Origin: Harriotta raleighana
Lineage: Eukaryota
DNA length: 64,000 bases
NCBI GenBank assembly: GCA_050575255.1
Contig: JBNZDD010013589.1
Span: 1,206,374-1,270,373 of the forward strand
Reading direction: 5' to 3'
The notes beneath the pieces were generated by a model. That model did not search any database, was not told the origin of the DNA, and was given only the letters and a program-made list of their open reading frames with translations. A program made the translations under genes and the position numbers. Of this stretch, positions 1-12,184 are shown piece by piece (position 1 is the first letter of the stretch; each line of letters starts with the position of its first letter).

Positions 1-219
1 ATAATAATAACAACAATTGCATTTGATATAGTGCTTTATCGTGCCTACTTGACGTCTCAAAATGCAAGTATTATTACATGAAGTGCTTTGAGATCTCTCA
101 ACAACGTGAAAGACCCTCTGTAAATGTAATTTTGTTGTGGTTGATTAGGGGCTCTTATCAAATGCAATTATCAAATTATCATCATCATCATCACCATTAT
201 TTACTACTACTGTATTATT

Positions 220-1000
220 GCCGGTCGCTCGATGGATCGTCGCTCGATTGGTCGGTGGGATTCGCTCGGCTCTCTGGTTGGATTAATGGATGGATGGAGG
301 GATCGATTGATCATGCCTGGCTCTGTGATGCCGCCCGGCGCTCGTCGCTCGATTGCCCGGGCCTTGCCCCCGCTTGCTGTCTCGGGAGCTGCGGTGTGAG
401 GGAGGAGGAGGGGGGGGAGGGGGGAGACACCGACAGGAGGAGGAGGAGGAGGGGAGGGAAAAAAAGGAGAATTATTTCATGTTAAAAAAAGGGGGGGAAA
501 GAGAGAAAATCAAAAGGTTCCAGAGCCGGGCCCAAGGCTTTCCCGCCTCGTCTCCTCCGCGGCCTCGTAACACTCCCAGCGAGAGCCCAGGAGACGCCGC
601 CTGCCAGGTAGGCCTCACTCAGCCTGAGCCTCAGGCTCTCACCGGGAGCGGGAAGGCCCACAGCCCGACCCAGGCCTCTCCGCCACCTCCACCCACAGTG
701 TCTCGCTGTGCCGCTCCTCACCCCACTCTCCCGCTCTTTCTCCCCCCCCCCCCCCACCCCAATCTCTCTTTTCTCGTTCGTTCTTTCTTCGTTCGTTGGA
801 GGGAAGACTCGATCCTTCGGCGCGGCTTTTTTTTAATCATTGAAAAGCCTCCTGAAAGGGATCCCGACCAGAAGGTAGGAAGGAAAGGAAGTCACCGCTA
901 AAATGCCACCCCCCCCCCTCCACCTCACCCTCCATCTCTCTCCCTGTCAGCCCCTGGCTGGCGAGGTCAGGAGCTGGAGTCTCGACGGGGTGAAGGAGGA
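220..1000. promoter_or_regulatory. CpG-rich promoter region of AMBRA1
   Basis: Dense CpG/GC content in an otherwise CpG-poor window, 11 kb upstream of the first coding exon; followed by a donor-like GAAG|GTAGGA at 874/875. Confidence 0.7.
720..874 (+). other. AMBRA1: Probable non-coding exon 1 of AMBRA1 (start approximate)
   Basis: Donor GAAG|GTAGGA at the 3' edge of the CpG-rich region; no ATG in 490-874; vertebrate AMBRA1 has an untranslated first exon. TSS cannot be fixed from sequence. Confidence 0.5.
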
Positions 1001-1429
1001 GGAAGTGGGAGAGAGTTTGATAGGGAATAGAACAGATGCTCCACACGAAAGAGAGATTGGGCTTGTTGAGAGGAATAGGGGTATTGAGGTCTTGTGGAAA
1101 ATGTATATTCATGGGTTGGCGGGGTGGGGGGAGCAAAGGAGGGCAATAAGATGTAATTATAGTAGGAGGAGGGTAATATTTAAGGGGTTGTGAGGGCAAT
1201 GGAAGAAAATATTGTATTCAGGGGTGGGGGAGGATGGTGACATTTAAGGCTTGTGAGGGGGAAAGGAGGACAATGTTTAAAGGGTTGAGGGATGGGCACT
1301 GACTGGACAAATCTTTAGGAAATTTGATAGAGGCTGAATGACCTCTGAAGCTATAAGGTTCTCTGAAAAGTTGCTCCAGGTCTCAGATCGTTATTAGGTG
1401 ATGGTGTAATGTTTTCAAGTGGTTTTGTA

Positions 1430-1620
1430 TTTGGGAGCGGGAGTAGGCCATCAGCCCCTTGAGCCTGTTTCGCGATTCTTCTCAATTGTGGCTGATCTTG
1501 TCCCTCAACCCCGTTTACGAAGCCTTTCCTTCATATCTCTTGAAACCCTTACCTAACCCAAATCAGGAGATGTCAGTCTCAAAAATTTGAATTGATCTAA
1601 CATTCACAGAATTTTGTATT
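1430..1620 (-). mobile_element. CR1-type LINE 3' fragment
   Basis: GGAGTAGGCCATCAGCCCCTTGAGCCTG is the reverse complement of the CAGGCTCGAGGGGCTGAATGGCCT 3' motif also seen on + at 21423-21460 and 46455-46490. Confidence 0.6.
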
Positions 1621-2037
1621 TTTTTACACTCTATAATTTTATAGAATCCTACATTTTTTCCAGCTTCACCTATTCACTCTTTCATGTCCATAGGTGTGCT
1701 CTGATCAGTTTCTTTACCTGACTATAGTTATCAAAGGCACTGTAGGAATCTAACGGAGATGGGATAAAGGGAGTACAAACAGCAGCAATGGCTTGTTGTG
1801 CAGAACAGCCTCCTCCCAAACATTATCAGGATAAAGCTCTTATGTCCTGTATGTAAGGATATAGAGTTTTATCATGATCATAGTTAGGACAAGGTTTTAT
1901 CATATTCGTAGTTAGTCAGTCCTGTCATAATTAGGGCAATGCAAAAAACTATTTTGGGAAAATCAAATTGTAGCTTTTTCAAATTACACTGTTTAAGAAA
2001 AAACTTTTTTAAGTACCTGGAGAAGCATGGATATAAA

Positions 2038-2370
2038 AATAATCCTTGCATTTGATATAGAGCTTTTCATGTCTTTTAGATGTCTCAAAGCCTTTCACAG
2101 AATATAGGTGATAAGAGGCAGTCAATTCGCAGTGTCCCACAAAAAGTTGAGGAATGAAATTGCCAATTTATTATTGTTTTTTTTCGAGGGATTATTATCA
2201 AGATTGTAGAGTAAGGAAACTTGCCCAAGATTTTGCCCTGGCTTGAATTGAATCCAGGTCTCTCACTTGCAAGGCGAGTGCTCTAACCATTTGATACACG
2301 TAGCACTTTTCACGACTTCTAGACATCTCAAAGTGCTTCACAGAGTATACTGTAAAGTGAATTGACTTTT
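2038..2370 (-). mobile_element. tRNA-derived SINE (dominant family) plus a second tail fragment
   Basis: Tail AATAATCCTTGCATTTGATATAG and head ...GCAAGGCGAGTGCTCTAACCA, reverse complement of the + copies. Confidence 0.8.
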
Positions 2371-5300
2371 TTTGTATTTTAAATTTGTTGTTGCAAATTA
2401 TTTGTTGTCATTAGGGTTCAATTGGACTGAAGGCAAATGTTGATCTGATCAAAGTGTAGGGCTTCCAGGCCAGACCTTAGTTGCTCATTGTATAGAATTT
2501 GTGGTGTATGCCATAACAAATGCAACGGTGTGTTTCGTATGCAAAATATTTCTCCCTTGTTATTCAGTTGTGAAAATGTTAGCCAGCCGTTTGGTAGATG
2601 TCACTTAGAGGCATTGGGATAAACTAAAACCTTCAATATATTTTGTGTTTTTTTTGAATTTTATTATTTCCACAGGAGCATATTGGGCGGGGAAGGAGTT
2701 TTAGTGGTTGGTATATGTTATTGTGTGTTTCTATTTTGGCGAGGATGCTTTCTGATACACTTAGGAGAGACGGGTGGGAAGGTGCATTATGTGATTGATT
2801 TTCAAATGGAAGTTATAGATGGCCCTATAGTTTATGATTTGTGTTAATTTGCCAGGTGATTAAATAATAATCTTTGCATTTGATATAGCACCTTATCATG
2901 ACTCCGAGACATCTCAGTGCTTCACGCAATATACCTTAAAATGAATTGACTGTGTATTTTGTGGGTGAAAATGAGCTGTAGTAGAAAGACTAAATGGGTA
3001 ATTTTTATGTTTGGAACTCACAGCAATCCCAATGCAGCCATAGTGATTCTTGGCAATCCTGGCTGAGCTTTCACACTGTTGGTGCACATTGAATCTTGAG
3101 TTTTTGTGACTTACTGCTCACTCGGTTCAAATGATTGTAGCTGATCAGGGAATGGATGGGTGCTCCTTTTCAATCTATTTTTAGTGATGGTAAACTTAAG
3201 GTTTTATTTCTTTTCGCGACATCAACTGTTGTGTTTAAGCATCTGGGACCCAGCGTGAAGGGTGCTGTATAAATACAAGTTGTTGTGTGTGTTTGTTGGC
3301 ACAGACATTAGGAAATAAAACTGAAGTACTTATCTCCACTGATTGATGAAGGAAAATGAACAACTATTGAATTTTTCATTTGCAATTGTATTCATTTACA
3401 GTTATTTACAGGTGTGTGAGGTGGGATGGTTGGGGTTGGCCGGAGAGAAAGATGCAAATGTTAGTTGCTTAAAAAATCTACTTTTGTAATGCAGGAATAG
3501 AATGAGTAAGCTCATTATCAGTACAGTGTGAATTTCAATGTGTTTGGGAGAAACTTATAAATAACTTGCTAATATATTTTTAAAAATCGGCACATGCATG
3601 CTCTTCAGATTTGGTGTTATATTTAGTTGCGGTCGCTTGTTTTAAATAAAACAGTTGGCACAACTTTGATATAACTAGAACATTAATAAACCATGTTAAA
3701 ATCAGTGATTTGGTCTGTATCTCAAACTGGGTCTCAGGCCTTTCGAATAAACTAGATTTATTTTCTGTGTAGGATGCATTGCTTTCTGTTGTGTATATTG
3801 CTACACTATTGGCTTACAATCATTCCATTTCAGAGAGAGACCACATGGAATAAATATGGCCTTGAATTCAGGATGTCATTTTTAAAAAGTGGCCAAACAT
3901 GCCATCTCCAAAATGCAAAGAAAGTAAAAGGGTGGCATGGCATCATTGCAATGGTTTTAGCCACACAATAGTGTTGTAACCATTTGTTTATCGTGGAATG
4001 TGAACTGAACACTACACCAGTTCACTTACTGCTTTTAGTGAGAGTGTTTTATCATCGACTGTGGTTCACTTTAATAGAACAATACATGTTGAAATGTTAA
4101 AACGGCAATGTTAATTTTTTATAGCATTTACTTGATATTTGAGAGTGATTTAAAAACAAATGGATGGCATTGCAATTGAACCGTCTCATGAATTTTTTTG
4201 TTGCTTCCCATAGCTTGGGGGGGAAATGTGGCAAAGGGTTATTTATTCATTCAAATCACAACACAGTTTACAATACAATTTTACTTGCAGATAGAACCTT
4301 TTACATTAGGAGGATGTCCCTAATAATTATTACGTTGTTGATAATGTGGAGAAAATTTGATTAAAAACACGACGAAAGTCATGAGTTCCATAATCTAGTA
4401 ACTTTATGATCTGGATTGTGGGTTCTTTATCTTATTTATCCTGTGATTCTATTCAGCTGTAGTTCAAAGTAGTGACTATATGAAACTTAAGTTGGCTCTA
4501 CCTCTGTCCTGTGTGCCAAGAAATAAAAGCTAACAGCAGCTTGATGTTTGAGAACCAGCATGTTTAACGGTGTTCAATGGATACGTTCTACAACTAGAAA
4601 ACCTTGGAGGGAATTTAGAGGTGACCAAAGGTCTGGTTGGAGAGGTATCTCTTTAGGATGTAGTTTGTGAGCAGAAATAGCCAAACTAATTACTTTTGGA
4701 AGTCAGTTCCAGAGGCTTGGTAGCTGCTGGCTTTGTGTTGGATGAATTGGTAACAAGCAGTATAACTGAGTCAAAAGACTTTAGCCCGCATAGGACATGT
4801 TTACACCTCCTTGATCTCATGAAGGCTGAGTGCCCTGAATAGGATTTGACCCATGGCATTCCGGCTCCAACTGTGCTGCTCCTTCAACAAAGTCGCTGAG
4901 GGCTGATGATAATAATATAATACAAATATGAAAGTTCAATAATGTCTAGCATTAATGTAGCATATTTCAAGATGTTTTCTTTTTAACAATTTTGAGAACT
5001 AGGTTCAAATTTTTAGCTCTCTTTATTGCTCCAAGTGTTACAAGCAGACTCTGTTTTTCTCAGCACTGGCAAGTGTGCTCGGCTGCGCTGAGAAGGAGTC
5101 ACTTCATGTTGCCGAGTTTGGTGTTGCCATTTATAAAATGTATGCACATTTCCAGTATCAATGGAACACCAAGATAGACATTTAGACGAGCACAGTGACA
5201 GGCTAAATCCTTTTAGCCATGCACTACAGGATTTCTGTTGTGGTTAGTTTACCCTCAGATGTGGGCCTGAATAAAGTAGATTCTTGTCCAAGTAACTGAA

Positions 5301-5439
5301 TATGGTTGAAAAAAACTATATTCAGCAGATTATACTCTCATGCTAATACTACCACTACTGCTACTAATAATAATCCTTGAGACATCTCAAAGTCCTTCAC
5401 AGTGTATACTAAAAATGGATTGACTGTGAATGGTATTAA

Positions 5440-5720
5440 ATTCTCCAAACAGGACTAGGTTGTGTTCTGGCTGATCATTTAAGATATTCACCTTCAATAC
5501 CTGGGTTTGAATCCCTCCCAGATTGATGGAATTAAAGCTGTGGGTCTGGGACAGTCCCAACCCAGTGTTAAATGGTTGTCATTCCACAGCACAAACTCTT
5601 CCATAAATTGGTACAAGGTTATCAATCTCACTCATCAATGGATGATATATGAATGGGGAATTGGGAAAATTCACACTATGCCATTATTGGCATATGAGAT
5701 TTGCACAGGATCTGCCTACA
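5440..5720 (+). mobile_element. Ancient tRNA-headed SINE resembling LF-SINE
   Basis: TTCACCTTCAATACCTGGGTTTGAATCCCTCCCAG and CCACAGCACAAACTCTTCCATAAATTGGTAC resemble LF-SINE blocks as recalled; not aligned computationally. Confidence 0.45.
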
Positions 5721-6084
5721 CAGTGTCTTTCCTGAACACGTTTGAATCTGCTGCTAGTTGCCCAGTTGGAAACTTGCTCCATCCACCCCCAGGCCTGCTA
5801 TTTTTGTTTGAGCATAGTAAAGAATATTAATAGTCAGACTCAGTGAAGGATATGCTTTGCATTGAAAGCACTTTCACTTAAGTAGAGTATTTTCACAATG
5901 ATTTAGAGCAAGTTCTGTAATCTTACTGTGTTTTCTTTTCTACACTCAGCATTTCTGATGGCGAGACACAAGACCCAGATGACTAGTCAGGAAGTTGGTG
6001 TAATGAGATGACCAAAATTACTTTATAGTGGCCTCCTGCCTGAATATCATGGCTTATATTTGTTCTAACTCTCTTAAGTTGTGT

Positions 6085-6415
6085 GCAGTGCATTCAGAGG
6101 CTTTCAGATCATTGTTCAGGTTGACATTCTAGTAAAGTGCTGGGAGAGTACTGCTTTGCAAGAGATGCTCCCGCCTGCCTGGGGGTGGATGTCAAAGATT
6201 TCCTATTTGACATCAGAAGGGAGTATTTTTCTGTTATGTTCATGAACAGTCCTCTAGATAAAATTGATGGTCGCTTTGTGGCTGTTTATCAGACTTCCAA
6301 AGTGCAAATTGCTGACTACATTTTCCTACAAACAGTGCCTACACTTGATGATAATTACATATGAAGTGCTTTGAGATATTTTTGCCCTCAAAGCACTATA
6401 TCAAATGCTAGTAAT
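6085..6415 (+). mobile_element. Degenerate DeuSINE (SacSINE1/AmnSINE1-like)
   Basis: AGGTTGACATTCTAGTAAAGTGCTGGGAGAGTACTGC...GGTGGATGTCAAAGAT Deu-like core followed by an L2-type tail. Confidence 0.55.
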
Positions 6416-7518
6416 ATTATTTACAGTTGTCTGTGGGGTGCACGTGCCTTCAATTGAGAGTAGGGCTAAGCTTCTGAAGTTCGGTTTTGAAGCAAAGTGA
6501 GTTTTATATTCATGGGGCGATTGGAGGGGGAGAAGAAAAGAGAAGGGGGAAGGAAAGTTAGGAGAAATGTCAGGAAGAATGTCAATAGAATTGAAGAGAG
6601 AATGAAAAGGGGAAGAGATAGGTGGGAAGATGAGCAAAGGAAGGAAGTTTAGGGCACATCATCCCACGTTAGAATATGACCTTTTGCTTGGCAGTCACAC
6701 TATTAACAGCTGGGAGTGCTGGATAGTGATTAGAAGTTGAGCATAGTTTTATTTTGCAAAACCTGAGCTTTGCATGTTCCTCACTGGGTTTACCAATTAA
6801 ATCATCAGGGCAGCTGCCTTAAAAATGCTGTTATTTCCAGGATGTGCCCAATGGTTTTCATTGTGGTTTAGGATTGCATTTTTATCAAGCGGGTGACCTT
6901 AAAAGAATTTGAGATAAAAAAATGGATGGCAGTACTTCTGTTTGTAATGTTCAGCAATAAATATTTCCTCAAGTATATGGCAAGTCCTTGGAATTGGAAA
7001 TATTTAAAGTTTATAATTCTGCCTCTTTTGCTTTGATTCGAAGGTTGGACAGCACATTTGATTGATATTCTGGAAATTGGATCTTGCCTTTCAAATTAAA
7101 CCAGGCAGTGTTTCAATACGTTTACGATTTTGAATTAAACTCTCAATTCTTGTTGTATTCACCTCAGCTGTTCCTTTTGCACACTCCACTTGGACTATAA
7201 AATGGAGAGCAGATGCAAAGCGCGGGCAATGTGTAAATTGTCCGGAAAGAGAGGAAATGATTTAAGTTGAAAATGAATTTGCCTCAAAGCTGTGAATAAA
7301 CAAATGCCACCAGCGATTTTTGGCCCGAGCTGTCACTGCATTGATTCCAGATGTGGCGTCCTTTCATTATTGGCAATGTACATAGCTGTTTGTCACTCTG
7401 AAGCTATTGGGGTTAGCTCTGCATCTCCAGCCTGGAGTGACAGGCGATGTTTGATTATTTGTGCTCTGCCACATTGAGTTTTTAAACTACGCGTTCAAGT
7501 AACCCTTGGTGCACTCGA

Positions 7519-8090
7519 GAGTCCTGTAGCTCGCAAGCAAGTCCTGTTGGAGCAGTCGCAAGCAAGAGACCTGGGTTTGATTCCCAGAAGGGTGAAGTAT
7601 TGGGCATGTCTCCTTACTCCACAAGCCTCTGTTTACCTAGCAATAAGGAGGAACTCGGTTATTAGTTGATTGGCGAATTGCTTTTTTTTGGGGTAATAAT
7701 TCCTTCAAAAAATAATAATTGGTCACTTCAATCCACAACAGTTTTTGGGACACTACTATGCACATGGGAGAGAGCCGGGGCGAGGGATTGACCTTCAAAG
7801 AGCCGGCACAGACATGATGGGCCAAATAGCCTCCTTTTGTGATGTAAAATTCTATGATTCAATTGCCTGCCGCATTTCACCCACCGTGAGCAATTTTCCT
7901 TACCCCACATGCCTAATAATAATCCCTCAAAAAAAATTGGTCATTTTCAATCCACGACTGTTTGTGTGACACTGCTGTGCCACGATTTGCCCACCAATAT
8001 GAGATCAATTCACTCTGCAGTATATTCTGTGAAGCGTTTTGAGACGTCTCAAACGTGATAAGGCCAACACCAAATGCAAGGATTATTATA
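7519..8090 (+). mobile_element. tRNA-derived SINE, two partial/nested copies
   Basis: Head GAGTCCTGTAGCTC...GGGTTTGATTCC; tail TGAAGCGTTTTGAGACGTCTC...AAATGCAAGGATTATTA. Confidence 0.8.
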
Positions 8091-9000
8091 TCGCTAACTG
8101 ACTCATTTCATGAAGATTTTTTTATAAGATACATAACTACAAATTGTAATGAAATTCTCTTTTTGCTGCTAAAATTGACAGATTAGCACTGTATAAATAT
8201 CCACTTTCCAGTCCTAGATGACTTGAAGCATTTGGAGTTGTTGAACTGTGCTGTAATCACTACACTGTTTATTGCCTTCTGCTACAATGACTTGGGTATA
8301 GATTGCAGGTCGAGGATTATGCAGTCTGATGAGGGCTGAGACAGTCCGGCCCTGGCTGTTAATTTCACAGCCACATGTGTGAAAAGGAAATGGGATTCCA
8401 AGGCCCATCATCCCAGTTAATGTGAATTTTACTTTGTGCTGACTGGCGGAGATGTAGTCTTTTGTGTAGTGTAGCTTTAAAGATGGAGCGACGCTATAAA
8501 TGCAGTGTAAGGGCTTTTTTTCAGAGGAGGAATTGTGAGAATGCTTGTCCACAGCAGTTTGTAACAGCAGGAGTCACCTTGAAAGCAATTTCATAAATGG
8601 GGATTTAAAGTTGGAAAAGTATGTTGCTGTGCAGTTTGCATTAACTCTACTCTATTGAATAGTGTTCTTGTTATTACCAAAGTGGTAATCTTTACACTTT
8701 TGAGGGCACAGAGAGAGCAAATGTGAATAAAATTACCCTTTTCATATAAACACCTTAAAATACATTGAGCATGCTAAGTATGTGAAGTCTTAGATGTTTT
8801 ATTTTTGTTGTATATAGGCAACGGACAACTCTGGTTGTTGGTCGATTGGTGGATCACTTTCTGAGGATTATAATCCCTTCCTTATATATTAATTTGGTCA
8901 CTCAATCCACGTGTGTTTGTTGGACACTGGCAATTGGCTGTCGCGTTTGCCCATAAAACACAGTCAATACAGTTTCCAAGTGAAGCGCTTTGAGACGTCT

Positions 9001-11743
9001 TATCTCAAGGACACCACTTGCCCTATCCCCCTACTCCTCTGGCTCCTTCCCCTCTTTTGAGCACCTCACCCTCTCCCACCCCTCCTATCTCTCACTCAAA
9101 ATCCTCCTCCTCTACCGGCCCCCTAAAACCTCTCCCACTTTCATCTCTGACATTTCTACCCTCCTAACATCTCTCTGCCTCTGCTCTGATCGCCTCATCA
9201 TCCTGGGCGACTTCAACCTGCACTTCACCCCCTCTTGCTCCACCTCCTCTGTCTTCTCCCTCCTCTCCTCGCTCAACCTCTCCCTCCACATCAACTCCGC
9301 CACTCATGTTCACGGCCACCCACTCGATCTGGTGATCACCCGGGGCCTCAATGTCTGGGATGTCACCATTACCCTCAAGGCTGTCTCTGACCATCACTTC
9401 TTCTCCATCAGAACCTCCACACCTCTCCCTACTTCCAACAGACCCACCACCATCTTCTACCGCCCCTGGAAGAAGTTACCCCCACATTCTGTGACCACTG
9501 CCTTGGAGTCCTCCAAACTCCTCTCCCTCCGGCCCTAATCCTTTACTGACCCCTCTTCTGCTCTCACCCTCCTCCACAACACCCTCTCCTCGACACTCGA
9601 CACTCTTGCCCCCCTCACCTCCGGTACTGTCTCCTACTCTCGCTCCTCCCCCTGGTTTACCACTCACCTCCGCTCACTCAAGAGCCGGGTGTGGGCGGCT
9701 GAACACACGTGCCTCAAATCTGGCCTAGCGGTTCGCCGGCAAATCTGGCTGGACCTCCTCAAGTCCTACTGCTCCGCTGTACCCTCAGCCAAGTCGTCCT
9801 TCTACTCCAGGATAATCCTGGAGGCGAAGAACAACCTGAGGCTCCTATTCTCCACCACATCGCAACTCCTCTGTCCCCCCCGCCTCGCCGCGCAGGTCAT
9901 CTCCTCCAACCTTCGCTGTGAGGAGATGCTGGATTTCCTTGAATCCAAAATCAAGGGAATCCGCTCCGCGATCACGGCCCCCACAACTTCCACCCTCCCC
10001 CCCCAGCCTTTCCCCCCCACACTCTGACTCCCACTCATCCTCCTCTTCTTCTGTCACTAGTCCTGACCTTGAAGCCCACCACCTGCTCCCTGGACCCCAT
10101 CCCCACTCCACTCCTTATCTCCCAGCTCCACCTCCTTGCCCCACTTCTCACAGACATAATCAACCTGTCCCTCTCTTCTGGTTCAGTCCCCATTCCCCAC
10201 AAGACTGCCACCATCACTCCCACCCTCAAGAAACCTTCCCTTGATGCGTTGCAACTTTCAAGCTACTGGCCCATTTCCAACCTCCCCTTCTTGTCCAAGG
10301 TTCTGGAAAGAGTCGTCGCCTCCCAGCTGCGCTCTTTCCTCTCCACCCACTTACTCCTCGAACCTCTCCAGTCGGATTTCCGTGCGGCCCATAGCACGGA
10401 AACTGCCCTGGTCAAGGTCACCAATGACATCCTGACCATCTGTGACCAGGGCTCCCTCTGCCTCCTCGTCCTCCTCGACCTATCGACCACATTCGATACG
10501 GTCGACCACTCTATTCTCCTGCACCGCCTGTCCTCCCACCTCAACCTTCAAGGCCCTGTCCTTGAGTGGATTAGGTCGTACTTCTCCCACCGTCTTCATT
10601 TCATATCCTCAAATGGCTTTTCCTCCAGCCCCGCACTGTCTCGTGCGGCGTCCCTCAGGGCTCTGTCCTCGGTCCTCTCATCTTCACCCTCTATATGCTC
10701 CCCCTTGGTGACATCATCCGCAGACATGGGGTTAACTTCCACATGTATGCCAATGAACCCAACTCTACCTTTCCTCCTCTACCCTCAACTCCATGACTAC
10801 CAATGTCCTGACAGCCTAGCCTGCCTGTCTGACATCGAGTCCTGGACAACTTTCTTCAGCTTAATGTCCGGAAAACCGAGGCCCTCCTGATTCGCTTATG
10901 TCAGCGCCTCTGCAACTCAGGTGCTGTCAGCATCAGCATCCAAGGCTGCACTCTCCACCTCGCAAAGCCAGTCAGGAACCTCGGTGTTCTATTTGATCCT
11001 GAGCTATCCTTTCTCCCCCACATCCGCGCCACAACTAGCACTGCCTTCCACCATCTCCAGAACATCGCCAGACTACGACACTACCTCACCCCTCACGCTG
11101 CTGAAACACTAGTCCACGCCTTCATCACTTCAAGACTGGACTATGGGAACTCTCTCCTCGTAAGCCTTCCCGGTTCCTCCATCCACAAGCTGCAGGTCAT
11201 CCAGAACTCTGCAGCCCGTGTACTCTCCCGCACCAGGCTTCATGACCACATCACTCCCACCCTTGCCCGTCTCCACTGGCTCCCCATCCCCCAGAGGATC
11301 GAATTCAAGATCCTCATCCTTACCTACAAGGCCATTCACGGCCTTGCTCCCTCCTACCTCTCCGACCTACTATCCCCCTATCTATCTGCCTGTACCCTCC
11401 GTTCCTCTGGCTCTGGTCTGCTCCACATCCCCTGCCCTAACCGCCCTACCATCGGCGGCTGGGCTTTCAGCCGCTCAGCCCCCAGGCTCTGGAACTCCAT
11501 CCCCCAGTGCCTTTGCCTCGCTTCCTCCCTTTCTTCTTTCAAGGTCGGTCTCAAGACCTTTCTCTTCGACCATGCCTTCAGCTCCCCTCTCGACTCTCTA
11601 CCCCCTCCTCGCTCCTTCTTTTCCCTCCCCTCGCCCTGATCATTTCCCCCTGCTTGGGTCCTAAACCAACTGTCCAGCGCCTTGGGACGTCCTCCCGACG
11701 TGAAACACGCTCTATAAATGCAATCTTGTTGTTGTTGTTGTTG
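9001..11743 (+). mobile_element. L2-clade LINE, 5'-truncated, disrupted ORF2 (APE endonuclease + reverse transcriptase)
   Basis: EN motifs LYRPPK, ILGDFNLH, LDLVIT, SDHH; RT motifs PISNLPFLSKVLERVV, HSTETALVKVTND, LLDLSTTFDTVDH; stops and frameshifts; 3' GCGCCTTGGGACGTCCTCCCGACGTGAAA...(TTG)n; inserted in a SINE tail with GTCT duplicated. Confidence 0.93.
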
Positions 11744-11919
11744 TCTCAACAATGTGATAAGGCGCTATATCAAACACAAGGATGATTAGCTTGATAATGA
11801 GCAGTCTTTACAGTTATGAAAGCTATTATTTATCCAGGGAAATGATATTGTAGAAAGTGGACTATCTGTTAGTGTTGATCTTCAACACACCTCTAAACAA
11901 TGCAAATTGTTTCTTCCAG

Positions 11920-12049
11920 TGTTTGCATGACCACTATCCCAACGTATCCTGTATGGACTGTTTTTACCTGTGGCCTCTGCCTTGAGTTGGTGATCCTAAT
12001 CCCTGGCCCCTGGAAGCTGTGAGTTGGCAGAGGGTTGAGCTCAGTAGCA
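11920..12049 (+). other. AMBRA1: 5' UTR part of AMBRA1 exon 2 (contains two uORFs)
   Basis: Acceptor TTGTTTCTTCCAG ending at 11919, 130 nt upstream of the ATG at 12050. Confidence 0.65.
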
Positions 12050-12184
12050 ATGAGGAGCATCGACCGAAAGAATGCGATCCAGATCCTGACCAGCAGAGAG
12101 CAGGGCTCCCAGGGGCTGGGCTGCCAACGACGCCTGGAGGAGCTGGTGGAGGACAAGACACGGTGGATGCGATGGGAAAGTCAG
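12050..12184 (+). CDS. AMBRA1: AMBRA1 coding exon 1 (N-terminal DDB1-binding helix region)
   Basis: MRSIDRKNAIQILTSREQGSQGLGCQRRLEELVEDKTRWMRWESQ matches the AMBRA1 N-terminus (KNAVRIL...ELVEDKTRWMKWE); donor CAG|GTGAGC; 135 nt. Confidence 0.96.

Follow-up and report, generated by a model that had tools for sequence, protein, structure and literature searches.

The AMBRA1 leader of a chimaera holds two upstream start codons in probably old positions, without a conserved peptide

Introduction

Upstream open reading frames, or uORFs, have been reported in over half of human mRNAs (PMC9648851), and their evolution is surveyed in PMC7889888. The two uORFs in the AMBRA1 leader of the chimaera Harriotta raleighana resemble the sequence-independent repressive uORFs of vertebrates in being short, AUG-started and contained in the mature leader, and probably also in having starts that are better kept than peptides or stops; they differ from them in that translation and repression are here predicted from the sequence. 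They also resemble the delayed-reinitiation systems of ATF4 and GCN4 in comprising a short, likely permissive and a long, likely inhibitory uORF. In the ATF4 type, a short first uORF is followed by a second one that overlaps the main start out of frame; in AMBRA1 the order is reversed, with the long uORF first and the short one nested within it, and both end before the main AUG at 12050, so neither overlaps the main start. With the conserved-peptide uORFs (CPuORFs) of animals, as collected in the ESUCA set (PMC7530721), AMBRA1 shares the presence of upstream ORFs in an old vertebrate leader, but lacks a conserved peptide, an excess of synonymous change and a fixed stop; AMBRA1 is not named in the main text of the ESUCA paper. 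Literature titles and the beginnings of abstracts yielded no report of AMBRA1 uORFs, and the tables of human uORF catalogues may already list one. As set out below, the AMBRA1 uORFs probably have old start positions and no conserved peptide, and are predicted to be regulators of a common kind.

Results

Exon 2 of AMBRA1 and its upstream ORFs

The window, by which we mean the whole 64,000-nucleotide stretch of H. raleighana DNA that was analysed, contains on its plus strand (as for the exons, uORFs and leader block below) a 45-codon ORF beginning at 12050 that encodes the N-terminus of AMBRA1 (PDB 8wqr_B, E 2.3e-12); it is identical to Callorhinchus milii AMBRA1 in 45/45 residues, and its other 13 protein matches, mostly from named sharks and a skate, show 82-89% identity. 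This first coding part of the main ORF (12050..12184; start context -3 G, +4 A) forms exon 2 (11920..12184) together with a 130-nt leader part; the exon 2 stretch is single copy in genome G000 and is flanked by an AG acceptor at 11918-11919 and a GT donor after 12184. Contigs of a relative at about 96% identity (organism E; the RNA label of these runs is a guess) support the acceptor at 11919|11920: X19 begins at 11920, exactly at the acceptor, X13 fits from 11918 and has a GC-rich loose 5' end, and X13, X17 and X19 all leave at 12184 into the next coding exon. Splice sites, contigs and peptide identity thus confirm the initial annotation in its assignment of the 130 nt to the untranslated part of AMBRA1 exon 2; the acceptor downstream of 11985 that it had named as fatal to its proposal does not apply, since the contigs of organism E begin at 11920 or fit from 11918. 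As X19 and X13 begin at or next to the acceptor, both upstream start codons lie in the mature leader of this relative, and both AUG-started ORFs fall within the spliced leader, with exon limits taken from the relative's contigs and their guessed RNA label. The exact start of X19 also hints, weakly, that more than one upstream exon may join exon 2 in organism E.

The 3' end of a likely non-coding exon 1 (580..607) is predicted in a CpG-rich region, with a donor after 607 that is the only GC-rich AG|GT donor in window positions 1-11919 and 10 kb further upstream; it loosely resembles the 26-letter loose end of X13, and its junction with exon 2 is a predicted one. If transcription begins upstream of 479, the ATG at that position, which is open for 43 codons to the likely donor at 607 and then continues in the uORF2 frame to the uORF2 stop, would give a predicted spliced uORF of 64 aa (479-607 plus 11920-11985). 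Intron 1 carries a decayed, retroposon-like reverse-transcriptase copy in several broken frames (8984-11640), presumably of LINE type by its motifs, which reaches to about 280 nt from exon 2.

The first upstream ORF, uORF1 (11927..12022; 31 aa), starts in a weak context (-3 T/+4 A), is in frame with the main ORF and stops 27 nt before its ATG; its peptide is hydrophobic (GRAVY 1.08, best 19-mer 1.92). The second, uORF2 (11953..11985; 10 aa, MDCFYLWPLP; context -3 T/+4 G), is nested in uORF1 in another frame and stops 64 nt before the main ATG. The coordinates, lengths, contexts and gaps originally annotated for both ORFs were reproduced exactly, and the hydrophobicity ascribed to uORF1 is borne out. 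Two ATGs in this leader are what chance would produce, as at least two occur in 4299/5000 dinucleotide shuffles of the 130 nt. The two stops share the 8-letter context TGAGTTGG (11983-11990 and 12020-12027). A skate AMBRA1 model, P0014, begins six residues earlier than the main ORF, and its extra residues after the Met match LSSVA in the window's in-frame leader translation (12032-12049), which suggests a third, in-frame upstream ATG in the skate lineage or in an isoform.

A leader block is conserved in amniotes

The sole locus obtained from a scan of metagenomes, L001, is a contig with AMBRA1 exon 2, the 45 residues of which recur unchanged in named birds, lizards, turtles and one marsupial. 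Two ATGs in its 121-nt leader, at exon positions 7 and 26, open uORFs of 5 and 6 aa. The ATG at position 7 aligns with the uORF1 start (uATG1, exon position 8 in the window) and has the same -3 T/+4 A context; at the place of the uORF2 start (uATG2), L001 has ATA. Its other ATG, which keeps the aligned frame, precedes that place by two codons, and its second uORF has one of four overlapping residues, a Cys, in common with uORF2. The motif MDxFYLW is absent from all three frames of the L001 leader, and the uORF1 and uORF2 peptides score below the shuffle mean against any L001 frame (1489 and 1863 of 2000 shuffles, respectively, score as well).

At the nucleotide level, the similarity is concentrated in a block at the 5' end of the leader that contains both upstream starts (11920..11985) and is identical to L001 at 40/66 positions, as compared to 19/64 in the remaining leader and 86/135 in the coding part. 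The similarity of the whole leader to L001 is matched by 12/2000 shuffles in global and 30/2000 in local alignment, that of its 5' half by 0/2000 and 1/2000, the split having been picked after seeing the alignment; neither the flanking intron nor the leader's 3' half is more similar to L001 than shuffles are. At about 61% local identity, three kept bases would not be rare, and one positional ATG match between two shuffled leaders occurred in 1044/5000 trials. Neither a stable fold of the leader (z 1.64, -0.42, 0.67, 0.07) nor an Rfam match at E 0.1 was found.

Further leaders can be read through protein, as gene models sometimes extend from intron 1 across the leader, in frame with the main ORF; such upstream read-through was seen in 2 of the best 120 of 573 protein matches and in 3/18 in another search. 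The resulting mammal-like set comprises nine proteins, six of them distinct over 31 residues and six reaching the main Met; it is biased to species in which the main frame is open through the leader, and none is shown to be human. We take these proteins as placental on account of P0157: its N-terminus agrees with the human chain, it groups with three of the set, and it shares the beginning of the intron-2 read-through. P0164 has an unrelated N-terminus and was left out of the set. Back-translated, the two proteins tested fit L001 and the window at 32-33/48 positions at best, which 0/5000 shuffles attained. All nine sequences are ATG-compatible at both the uATG1 and the uATG2 place, and the second is always followed by G at +4. 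Back-translation leaves CAT and CAC, or GAA and GAG, indistinguishable, and in each sequence an ATG would fit at 6-8 of the 82 positions. The two places are 25 nt apart in the set and 26 in the window. From the uATG1 place, uORF1 would span 29-38 codons in 5/6 complete mammal-like leaders, close to the 31 of the window, in a frame that differs from the window's after a 1-nt indel. P0018, a weakly aligned leader of amniote type, cannot hold an ATG at the uATG1 place.

Direct evidence for the start positions thus exists for uATG1 in the close relatives B and D and in L001, and for uATG2 in B, D and E, with ATA in L001. The view that the uORFs are old in jawed vertebrates finds partial support for the start positions, in uATG1 of L001 and the 9/9 compatible sequences, and fails for the peptides.

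The conservation of the block could also have causes other than its start codons. It might be kept for a job at the nucleotide level near the 3' splice site, as a splicing enhancer or a protein-binding site, with the AUGs as passengers of little effect. The block does begin right at the acceptor, the bases between and after the ATGs are conserved as well, uATG2 is lost in L001, and P0018 is unable to hold uATG1; however, a substitute ATG in the aligned frame is present in L001, the leader shows neither the stable fold nor the Rfam match that was sought, and an AUG in a leader that is scanned will catch some of the ribosomes irrespective of any other role of the sequence. On balance, we consider this explanation rather unlikely. 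Alternatively, the uORFs may be unselected features of a slowly evolving leader, in which two ATGs are expected by chance in any case. Cartilaginous fish evolve slowly, and intron 2 still matches between the window and organism F (see below) at 16/30 letters, ungapped and counted by eye; yet the 5' block is about as similar to the amniote sequence as the coding exon is, at a distance at which neither the intron nor the leader's 3' half rises above shuffles, and an entirely neutral origin is decidedly unlikely.

The peptides are free to change

The leader in the window was compared with 8 of 22 listed sequencing runs; the listing gave no RNA run from the window's own organism. Organisms B and D keep both uATG1 and uATG2 intact, and in E this holds for uATG2. 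At position 11963, only the window and B have T. The base is C in organisms C, D and E, in which codon 4 of uORF2 thus encodes Ser, or Pro in the case of run X19, where 11962 differs too; Phe4 of MDCFYLWPLP is in this way replaced in 3/4 relatives compared. As T is confined to the window and B, Phe4 most probably arose recently, on the branch of the window. The differences listed, with each base scored separately, amount to 7 nonsynonymous to 1 synonymous in uORF1 and 2 to 1 in uORF2, where neutrality would give a synonymous share of 0.22-0.30; the excess of synonymous change by which the initial annotation had proposed to recognise selection on the peptides is therefore missing. The coding part of exon 2, with 9 nonsynonymous to 11 synonymous changes (P 0.002-0.011), demonstrates that the comparison is able to detect constraint. 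Both uORFs would seem to change as under neutrality, the changes in uORF2 being too few to decide alone. Judging from the tables, differences within about 30 letters of contig ends go unlisted; the counts are thus incomplete, and uATG1 is not proven for organism E.

Two more distant orthologs, the shark-like organism F and the skate-like organism G, have coding changes as found in named shark and skate proteins; of their leaders, 30 letters upstream of the fit were compared, by eye. In F, AGA stands in place of the uORF2 stop, and the uORF1 frame meets a TGA at codon 24, which would leave a peptide of about 23 aa if its start is kept; L-E-L-V-I of uORF1 is retained, with two synonymous changes. 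In G, 23/24 of the last nucleotides of uORF1 are kept, the stop included, and 25 nt separate that stop from the main ATG. The corresponding stretch of the window (11999-12022), very similar in G, is not alignable with the amniote L001, and may thus hold an element limited to cartilaginous fish.

These data bear on the central proposal of the initial annotation, that MDCFYLWPLP may be a conserved-peptide uORF spanning jawed vertebrates, and on the related reading that the nascent chain of uORF2 (or uORF1) stalls ribosomes. Such a peptide could draw on the observations that codon 4 is the sole place in uORF2 with a residue change in close relatives, at very low power, that F keeps L-E-L-V-I and G nearly all of the uORF1 end, and that P, W, F and C of the uORF1 segment PVWTVFTC recur in register in the mammal-like read-through frame. 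This last match, however, follows from DNA similarity, as the 1-nt indel puts uORF1 in a different frame there, and the PxWxxFxC frame has no AUG in the mammal-like leaders. D2, C3, Y5 and W7 of uORF2 are not encodable in register in 9/9 mammal-like sequences, and the shifted frames of 7/7 complete amniote leaders, P0018 included, cannot yield MDx[FSP]YLW, YLW or MxxxYLW; the MDxFYLW motif suggested for mammalian leaders is contradicted for these mammal-like sequences, none of which is shown to be human. With Phe4 absent from C-E, the uORF2 stop lost and the uORF1 frame closed early in F, the L001 peptides unrelated, and substitutions in the proportions given above, AMBRA1 shows, of the marks of a CPuORF, the AUG-started ORF in the spliced leader but no peptide similarity in distant orthologs, synonymous excess or conserved C-terminus and stop. 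A search of 1.84 billion proteins with the uORF1 peptide returned only two matches, both to repeat proteins. The conserved-peptide reading appears largely refuted; stalling by either peptide finds no support, and we hold it to be very improbable.

Since uORF1 is in frame with the main ORF, only 27 nt away and hydrophobic, read-through of its TGA might in principle yield an N-terminally extended AMBRA1. The stop is followed by GTT, which is to our knowledge not a read-through motif; moreover, the spacer is 25 nt in G, F stops earlier, uATG1 is out of frame in L001 and the mammal-like set, and 0/14 cartilaginous-fish proteins have the extension, one skate model having six extra residues only. 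Read-through is thus hardly credible.

Discussion

The explanation towards which we lean, with modest confidence, is that two upstream AUGs in a short conserved block, likely as old as the jawed-vertebrate ancestor, lower AMBRA1 synthesis whatever peptide they encode. As the starts are likely shared with mammals and the peptides are not, the uORFs would probably act as an ordinary brake rather than as a conserved peptide switch. Scanning rules are the basis on which uORF translation, repression and reinitiation are predicted here, and leaky scanning or reinitiation is the likely mechanism from this general knowledge. Most 40S subunits would leak past the weak uATG1; ribosomes starting there would read 31 codons, terminate 27 nt short of the main AUG and for the most part be lost. 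Part of the remainder would start at uATG2, with its +4 G, translate 10 codons and be able to reinitiate 64 nt downstream, the rest leaking through to the main AUG. AMBRA1 output would then depend on the stringency of start-codon selection and on the efficiency of reinitiation. uORF1 differs widely in length, with 31 aa in the window, 5 in L001 and, provided that its start is kept, about 23 in F, so the regulatory consequences may not be alike in all lineages.

For human T cells, PMC11536168 describes the AMBRA1 5' UTR as largely conserved and as conferring Torin- and 4EGI-1-sensitive reporter output, and ascribes the response to mTORC1/eIF4F to a TOP-like pyrimidine element; in the passages considered, constructs with and without the UTR are compared, not element mutants, and the main text lacks the words "upstream", "uATG" and "leader". 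A speculative extension of our reading, which we consider unlikely, is that the reported dependence of AMBRA1 translation on mTORC1/eIF4F has its true cis-element in the two-AUG block, kept since the split of chimaeras and mammals. To reinitiate after uORF2, ribosomes would need retained eIF4F, and growth signals would raise AMBRA1 by better passage through the uORFs; growth control would thus not, or not only, act via the TOP-like motif.

The class to which these uORFs belong is common, and its exciting version, a conserved stalling peptide, is unsupported. The amount of AMBRA1 matters for autophagy and for cyclin D turnover. The probably old pair of upstream starts offers a specific and inexpensive alternative to explaining the response by a TOP motif, and its two AUGs represent two places where human variants could alter the AMBRA1 dose.
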